From Escherichia coli (GTDB taxonomy: Bacteria; Pseudomonadota; Gammaproteobacteria; Enterobacterales; Enterobacteriaceae): 64,000 nt of DNA. The notes beneath the pieces were generated by a model that was given only the letters and a program-made list of their open reading frames with translations, did no database searches and was not told the origin of the DNA. Each line of letters starts with the position of its first letter. Position 1 is the first letter of the stretch. Both the position numbers and the translations under genes were made by a program. Of the stretch, positions 61,485 through 62,005 are shown in pieces. The stretch lies in NCBI RefSeq assembly GCF_036507355.1, contig NZ_AP027877.1. One strand, given 5' to 3'.

Positions 61485-61568
61485 TAAAAAAACCTGCTGG
61501 TGAGGCAGGTTCTTTTATTTACTATTTTCAGGCCTAACACCACAGCCTGTGCAACATCGTGTTCCAAC
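61485..61568 (-). ncRNA. orzO: candidate OrzO-like antitoxin sRNA of the zor/orz type I TA locus
   Basis: Minus-strand sigma70 promoter (-35 TTGCAA 61603..61598, 17-nt spacer, -10 TATAAT 61580..61575) precedes a region whose transcript would be complementary to the zorO 5' UTR (direct DNA repeat 61549..61573 vs 61715..61739), ending at a minus-strand hairpin plus U-tract (stem 61492..61510, A-run 61485..61491 on plus strand). Boundaries approximate. Confidence 0.45.
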
Positions 61569-61574
61569 GAACGA

Positions 61575-61625
61575 ATTATAACCACGGCTGGACCCCGTTG
61601 CAATTAAGATAATGAGATTTATAAT
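61575..61625. promoter_or_regulatory. back-to-back divergent promoters for zorO (+) and orzO (-) sharing one palindromic -35 hexamer
   Basis: Plus strand: TTGCAA (61598..61603), 16-nt spacer, TATAAT (61620..61625). Minus strand: the same self-complementary TTGCAA, 17-nt spacer, TATAAT (61580..61575). Predicted zorO TSS gives a ~174-nt 5' UTR. Confidence 0.45.
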
Positions 61626-61806
61626 CCAGACCGTTGGGACGTTGCGCCGGATCGGACCAATTTTAAGTCCTGGCTACCGGACGGGTGGTGCTGCAGGTGG
61701 TGCCCTGATCCGGAGTGCAACATCGTGGTCCAACATACGTAAACCAGTATCGACAGGCAGTGTAAGGGTAAGGTGCTGGTGTTGCGCTCCTTAATAAGGA
61801 GAGCGG

Positions 61807-61896
61807 ATGGACACGCTGACACAAAAGTTAACCGTGCTCATTGCTGTACTGGAGCTATTAGTAGCTCTGTTACGGTTGATTGATTTGTTGAAGTAA
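61807..61896 (+). CDS. zorO: type I toxin ZorO (29-aa hydrophobic membrane peptide)
   Basis: Read from sequence: AAGGAG RBS then ATG...MDTLTQKLTVLIAVLELLVALLRLIDLLK; matches recalled ZorO of enterohaemorrhagic E. coli; below track cutoff. Confidence 0.8.
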   Translation: MDTLTQKLTVLIAVLELLVALLRLIDLLK

Positions 61897-61919
61897 CGGG
61901 CAAATTGAAACGCATCTAA

Positions 61920-61942
61920 GGGGGAAAACCGCTTCCCCCTTT
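61920..61942 (+). terminator. rho-independent terminator of zorO
   Basis: GGGGGAA-aaccgc-TTCCCCC hairpin followed by TTT. Confidence 0.5.
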
Positions 61943-61950
61943 AATAAAGC

Positions 61951-62005
61951 TATACTCGTCATATTTCAAGTTGCATGTGCTGCGACTTGAATTATCTAGA
62001 GTATA
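61951..62005. repeat. short ERIC-like element (terminal arms only)
   Basis: TATACTCGTCATATTTCAAGTTGCATGTGCTGCG...GAATTATCTAGAGTATA matches the outer arms of the full ERIC at 25744..25869 but lacks the central core. Confidence 0.5.

Follow-up and report, generated by a model that had tools for sequence, protein, structure and literature searches.

Does a single −35 hexamer serve the divergent promoters that drive a toxin gene and the corresponding antitoxin RNA in Escherichia coli, and what would such sharing do to their expression? A preliminary description of the 64,000-nucleotide stretch of E. coli DNA analysed here (the window) had proposed that the promoters of zorO and orzO use one self-complementary −35 hexamer, at which they would compete for RNA polymerase, and that this could couple their expression ratio. 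We refer to the toxin promoter as Pzor and to the antitoxin promoter as Porz.

The locus is the zor-orz type I toxin-antitoxin pair of Escherichia, located between yehL and yehK; it is known from the work of Fozo et al. 2010 (PMC2887945) and of Wen et al. 2014 (PMC3919570). The flanks were assigned as yehL and yehK/yehI from the ORFs of the window and the RefSeq annotation of homologous stretches. A match was found in 5232 of 5426 complete E. coli genomes. The ORF list starts yehL at an upstream ATG (61440, giving 384 aa), and RefSeq homologues start at the equivalent of 61376 (362 aa). The extension, which would leave 45 bp between it and the Orz 3' end at 61485, is probably not real.

The orz antitoxin sRNA gene is of the P type and 84 nt long (61485–61568, minus strand, +1 at G 61568), as delimited by Rfam, the cloning primer EF541 and a mapped 3' end. 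The Rfam family RF02083 (OrzO-P) matched over its full length at 61486–61561 on the minus strand, with 99.9 bits (gathering score 60). The mapped Orz 3' end of MG1655, 2204485(+) (PMC7815308 supplement), corresponds to 61485 in the window when converted through the K-12-type locus L005. The length of 84 nt from 61568 to 61485 fits the ~85-nt band in Northern blots (PMC2887945). A second mapped 3' end lies inside Orz, at MG1655 2204446(+), equal to 61524 in the window and ~45 nt from the start (PMC7815308 supplement), which points to a site of processing or pausing or to a shorter form of Orz. The intrinsic terminator is a strong hairpin, AACCTGCCTCACCAGCAGGTT, followed by a U run (61491–61511, minus strand), and was seen in the terminator scan, the Rfam structure line and the fold. 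The terminator scan listed this hairpin on the plus strand; its stem is palindromic.

The zor transcript has a 5'UTR of 174 nt (61633–61806, plus strand, +1 at G 61633; PMC5397157 and cloning primer EF531). The RBS is AAGGAG at 61796–61801 on the plus strand (direct reading, PMC5397157 and PMC11264685 Table 3). The toxin ORF of 29 aa follows at 61807–61896 on the plus strand and encodes MDTLTQKLTVLIAVLELLVALLRLIDLLK, a hydrophobic ZorO-type peptide with T3, according to the ORF list and the homologues; ZorO and ZorP are distinguished by T3S (PMC11264685). The peptide is identical to that of the O copy in a two-copy strain (L001) and to most homologues. Toxicity of Zor and rescue by Orz were shown for the EDL933 genes (PMC3919570). 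NCBIfam holds no model for ZorO. A putative zor terminator was read directly as the hairpin GGGGGAAAACCGCTTCCCCC followed by TTTAAT (61920–61939, plus strand), and the terminator scan missed it because its T run is short. An isrH-like Rfam match at 61951–62005 (20.4 bits, gathering score 45) was taken as chance.

The 5' end of Orz (61549–61568, minus strand) pairs with the zor 5'UTR over 20 nt with one mismatch. Reading and alignment placed the target site at 61715–61734 on the plus strand (+83 to +102), within the published EAP region from +73 to +102 (PMC5397157). The two stretches are direct repeats whose sole difference is T at 61562 against G at 61728, and their alignment score was 35, compared with a shuffle maximum of 22. 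The pairing is arranged as 6(1)13 with one internal A-G mismatch, which keeps the window locus within the published limit of 15 or more contiguous nt, or of 17 nt if a single mismatch is allowed (PMC11264685). The mismatch is native to the P type, as the P copy of L001 carries the identical one. We rejected an origin of orz as a long inverted copy of the leader of zor: RNAduplex gave −61.5 kcal/mol, but beyond nt 20 the z-score was +0.56 against shuffles.

We compared the segments of the window locus with both copies of L001. The orz RNA was identical to the P copy at 84 of 84 positions and to the O copy at 67 of 84. The corresponding values were 62 and 48 of 64 for the promoter region, and 170 and 163 of 174 for the leader. 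Hence, the single copy in the window is P-type in all three segments. The names zorO and orzO used in the preliminary description are therefore right for the family, and as allele names they do not hold, as orz is the P type. As a whole, 61485–61960 is a mosaic: the P type accounts for orz, the promoter and most of the leader, whereas the peptide is ZorO (Thr3) and the 3' flank is that of the yehK-side (O) copy. The mosaic is consistent with deletion or recombination between tandem copies.

The start sites were originally mapped by primer extension in EDL933 (PMC2887945), and the sites given for the window are these, carried over by sequence identity. For zor, the 5'UTR of 174 nt has been published with the RBS at +164 to +169 (Wen et al. 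2017, PMC5397157). As AAGGAG at 61796–61801 must occupy these positions, the +1 is G 61633. The cloning primer EF531 (pEF21-zorO) opens its insert at GTTGGGACGTTGC, which is the same base. For orz, the cloning primer of orzP, EF541, reads CCAGCCGTGGTTATAAT-[AatII]-GTTGGAACACG, and the start of the insert, GTTGGAACACG, is the Orz 5' end. EF541 matches the minus strand of the window except for six bases swapped for the restriction site, and the orz +1 is therefore G 61568. This position is supported by published deletions: OrzO pairs over 18 nt, and over 15 or 12 nt when it lacks its first 3 or 6 nt (PMC3919570). The accessible part of the Cappable-seq supplement contains none of the coordinates expected for the orz-only locus of MG1655; only Orz 3' ends were recovered elsewhere.

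The two start sites are 65 bp apart, so that TTGCAA at 61598–61603 forms positions −35 to −30 of both promoters. Direct reading confirmed that this hexamer is its own reverse complement, as the preliminary description had stated. Reading and a consensus scan also bore out its two −10 elements: a TATAAT on the plus strand at 61620–61625 (−13 to −8 of zor), separated from the hexamer by a 16-bp spacer, and a TATAAT on the minus strand at 61580–61575 (ATTATA on the plus strand; −12 to −7 of orz), with a 17-bp spacer. The distance from −10 to +1 is 7 nt for zor and 6 nt for orz. Both promoters thus have the 16–18 bp spacing and the start 5–9 nt past the −10 that are asked of a sigma-70 promoter. 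The preliminary description had named mapped start sites as the check on these hexamers, and the published sites, transferred by sequence identity, fit them.

The consensus scan found two sigma-70-like sites here, one per strand, each agreeing at 10 of 12 consensus positions and neither with a TG extension. Promoter-like sites as such were not enriched between 60500 and 63000 (3 found, 3.4 expected). The composite ATTATA-N16-18-TTGCAA-N16-18-TATAAT was present a single time in the 64-kb window, and 100 dinucleotide-preserving shuffles yielded no instance of it. Read by eye, no sequence at 16–18 bp from either −10 matched TTGACA better than TTGCAA did; the alternatives reached 1–3 of 6 positions. 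TTGCAA itself agrees with TTGACA at 4 of 6 positions, which is the ceiling for any of the 64 self-complementary hexamers. Among those that reach 4 of 6, only TTGCAA keeps TTG in both directions.

The A/T-rich −10 of the opposite promoter lies at −58 to −53 or −57 to −52 of each promoter, at about the position of the distal UP-element subsite. It is speculation that the −10 boxes might give alpha-CTD contacts to the opposite promoter.

That one −35 hexamer is common to both divergent promoters can also be read from the literature. Table 3 of the 2024 E. coli survey gives "-35 (TTGCAA)" for Zor and Orz alike, with frequencies of 99.4% for each in 2439 full loci and 99.7% for each in 656 orz-only loci; the −10 frequencies of Zor and Orz differ from each other (PMC11264685). 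Equal −35 frequencies next to unequal −10 frequencies are what would be expected if one hexamer was counted twice. Predicted −35 and −10 elements are marked in Fig. 1A of both Wen 2014 (PMC3919570) and Wen 2017 (PMC5397157). In the accessible texts and supplements of the zor-orz papers, there is no comment on a shared −35 or on competition, and the accessible supplement of PMC11264685 does not mention TTGCAA, sharing or overlap. The accessible text of the zor-orz papers reports neither mutagenesis of the hexamer or either −10 nor a measurement of one promoter without the other. The promoter anatomy is thus already known, being implicit in published annotation, and its mechanistic reading is undiscussed there. 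The finding adds no new element to the characterised zor-orz locus.

The orz-only locus L005 keeps the full zor promoter (TTGCAA and TATAAT) and ~30 nt of the leader at 1629–1727, equal to 61568–61666 in the window. In such toxin-less strains, the retained zor promoter faces antisense into the 3' end of yehK.

The promoter itself was not used to collect homologues. Five stretches of E. coli were taken across the identity range, and the 20-nt Orz terminator served as the query of exact-match scans that covered a single genome of each species as well as metagenomes. The sources outside E. coli were E. whittamii (two copies), two further Escherichia species and metagenomes. Three metagenome 20-mer matches (L017, L025 and L033) were discarded as unrelated chance matches.

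ATTATA-N17-TTGCAA-N16-TATAAT was found exactly in 37 of 38 complete promoter regions, all three hexamers being invariant in these 37 copies. Among 20 distinct start-to-start sequences, 0 of 18 hexamer columns were variable, compared with 23 of 33 spacer columns (Fisher p = 6e-7). The spacer lengths were constant although the O-, P- and other-type spacer sequences have diverged: on the zor side, 10 of the 16 positions vary, and the length is 16 bp in 37 of 37 copies. The pattern speaks well for constraint on the hexamers and on their register. It says less about a need for the −35 at both promoters, because Porz alone could account for the hexamer and indels are rare among close relatives.

The remaining promoter region belongs to a metagenome contig (L012; 336–410 of OBVG01003148.1). 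It carries a 20-bp insertion directly after TTGCAA and is otherwise identical to another homologue (L032, 1771–1825). The insertion puts the zor −10 at 36 bp from TTGCAA. It also supplies TACACA (16-bp spacer) or CTTACA (18-bp spacer) before the zor −10, each agreeing with the consensus at 4 of 6 positions, so that Pzor is apparently still preceded by a −35-like box. As this allele splits the promoters naturally and its zor ORF is intact (MDTLTQRLTVLITVLELLVALLRLIDLLK), sharing is not indispensable. The allele is a natural "uncoupled" control.

These data bear on the question of whether Pzor uses the hexamer at all. A consensus −10 may drive activity with little help from the −35. The use of TTGCAA by Pzor, with its 16-bp spacer, is therefore probable rather than certain. 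TTGCAA could then be the −35 of Porz only, with Pzor run essentially by its −10 and no functional sharing. The suboptimal spacer of 16 bp would fit such a division, as would the published weak expression of zor mRNA, with protein undetectable from a single copy, and the fact that Porz by itself explains the conservation of the hexamer. The zor-side spacer is, however, exactly 16 bp in every copy despite its variable sequence, the L012 insert sets a new 4/6 hexamer before the zor −10, and Pzor lacks a TG extension to offset a missing −35. Overall, we regard use by Porz only as unlikely.

The TT at 61604–61605 was also invariant in all 20 distinct sequences, which extends the conserved block to 8 bp, TTGCAATT. 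CytR and other repressors of the LacI family use half-sites of the TGCAA type. It could be argued from this that TTGCAA(TT) is conserved as a transcription-factor operator and not as a −35, and according to an unpublished observation that PMC3919570 cites, zor/orz expression responds to carbon source. However, conservation extends neither to a longer palindrome nor to a second half-site, the flanking sequence differs freely from one locus type to another, and the exact placement at −35 to −30 of two mapped starts is fully explained by promoter function. As conservation ends at 8 bp, the operator was set aside as very improbable.

We consider it likely that zor and orz are driven by back-to-back sigma-70 promoters on one symmetric −35, with mutually exclusive initiation that favours the antitoxin. 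Porz would fire leftward from G 61568 and yield the 84-nt antitoxin RNA; Pzor would fire rightward from G 61633 and yield the toxin mRNA with its 174-nt leader. The symmetry of TTGCAA would present TTG to sigma region 4 in either orientation, so both promoters could use the hexamer. The −35 hexamer is where sigma region 4 docks, and the polymerase covers at least −40 to +10. As two holoenzymes cannot dock in opposite orientations on the same six bp, formation of closed or open complexes at Pzor and Porz should be mutually exclusive. On this structural argument, one polymerase would be docked at a time, and initiation at one promoter would exclude initiation at the other at any instant.

The spacer of Porz, at 17 bp, is optimal, whereas that of Pzor is 16 bp; the discriminator measures 6 nt in Porz and 7 nt in Pzor, where it is GC-rich. 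Because of these differences, Porz is expected to win more often, which would favour the antitoxin. Frequent wins of Porz would be consistent with the abundance of Orz RNA in exponentially growing cells (PMC2887945). Competition of this kind implies mutual repression or anticorrelated initiation and not a fixed expression ratio, which differs from the coupled ratio suggested in the preliminary description. How far Pzor and Porz lower each other depends on occupancy, and the effect is probably modest. The toxin is held back mainly after transcription, by the published mechanisms of leader structure, processing and Orz pairing. If the promoters exclude each other, a link between toxin and antitoxin at the level of transcription would be added to this RNA-level control.

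The dependence on occupancy leaves considerable room for a more neutral account. Both promoters may use the hexamer at such low occupancy that the overlap has no regulatory effect, as a frozen accident kept since an indel would break one promoter. The zor-orz papers do assign toxin control to RNA-level mechanisms (PMC5397157, PMC11264685), and the separated promoters of L012 occur in nature. The model of overlapping promoters by Bendtsen et al. 2011, in which each promoter is cut by the fraction of time that the other is occupied and not by its strength, predicts interference only at a high "aspect ratio" (PMC3167631). In the sole direct experimental analogue found, the basal activity of five natural bidirectional promoters that share a −10 was too low for polymerase competition, and none was measurable; competition became strong once one direction was improved or activated (PMC12825309). 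Against this, a consensus −10 and a TTG-containing −35 at near-optimal spacing make Pzor and Porz stronger than typical basal promoters, so that occupancy may not be low, and Orz is abundant in exponential phase. We give the frozen accident somewhat less than an even chance.

The opposite effect, a positive coupling, would arise if divergent transcription from starts 65 bp apart produced negative supercoiling and the −10 boxes, at the opposite distal UP subsites, led to mutual stimulation. The twin-domain supercoiling model is established and lends itself to this account, and each TATAAT is placed in the upstream region of the other promoter, as described above. Reciprocal stimulation of divergent starts has been reported for promoters that share a −10 (bioRxiv 10.1101/2020.01.31.928960). 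But sigma region 4 cannot hold the same six bp both ways, and on this structural reasoning stimulation could act only between successive initiations. Positive coupling seems improbable to us.

The literature search for a shared or overlapping −35 returned nothing relevant. Overlapping promoters as such have precedents in lambda PR/PRM and pBR322 P1/P2, and aroP P1/P3 is a further one (PMC3167631).

The closest relatives are zorO-orzO and zorP-orzP of EDL933. The window locus has the same family, yehL-yehK site, 29-aa toxin, divergent sRNA of ~85 nt, 174-nt leader and −10/−35 hexamers. It differs in that it has a single copy, which combines P-type orz, promoter and UTR with a ZorO-type peptide and the yehK-side flank.

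In tail-to-tail overlapping promoters, the reverse start lies within −80 to +20 of the forward start (Bendtsen et al. 2011, PMC3167631). The reverse start of zor-orz, at −65, falls within this class. The class is defined by footprint overlap in general, whereas zor-orz shows an exact register of two −35 hexamers on a dyad-symmetric sequence.

The bidirectional promoters that share a −10 (Warman et al.; PMC12825309) have in common with zor-orz a symmetric core element, two polymerase orientations and mutually exclusive binding. Their starts are 7–25 bp apart with a mode of 18 (bioRxiv 10.1101/2020.01.31.928960; PMC12825309), while those of zor-orz are 65 bp apart, with the −35 as the element in common and a −10 box for each promoter. 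This category expressly leaves out separate divergent promoters (PMC12825309), and zor-orz, with its distant starts and separate −10 boxes, is not a bidirectional promoter in the sense of Warman and Grainger. A bolder proposal is that bacteria have a second and as yet uncatalogued kind of bidirectional promoter, defined by a dyad-symmetric −35, which shares the −35, has starts ~65 bp apart and initiates toxin or antitoxin as strict alternatives. We put this forward tentatively and think it doubtful. If true, toxin and antitoxin bursts would be anticorrelated in single cells, and the toxin:antitoxin transcription ratio would be hard-wired by the spacer and discriminator contexts together with the concentration of free polymerase. 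This could be a transcriptional path to occasional toxin-high cells. Mutual exclusion of the promoters would in itself make zor-orz a clean natural model for back-to-back promoters that share a −35, outside the current work on shared −10 elements.

The archaeal divergent promoters of T. kodakarensis around a shared TATA box, with starts 52 bp apart, resemble zor-orz in that a symmetric upstream element serves both directions. They use TBP/TFB and not sigma-70, and the analogy is a conceptual one.

Among type I pairs, tisB/istR-1 and shoB/ohsC have, like zor-orz, a divergent antitoxin sRNA with short complementarity (18–21 nt) to a long toxin 5'UTR. The −35 of shoB is GTGACC and that of ohsC TTGTAA/TTGTAC; tisB has none and istR-1 has TTGCGC (PMC11264685). 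The −35 elements of toxin and antitoxin thus differ in these two pairs, which have no common self-complementary hexamer, unlike zor-orz. According to the tables of PMC11264685, the shared −35 is peculiar to zor-orz among the divergently encoded type I pairs of E. coli.
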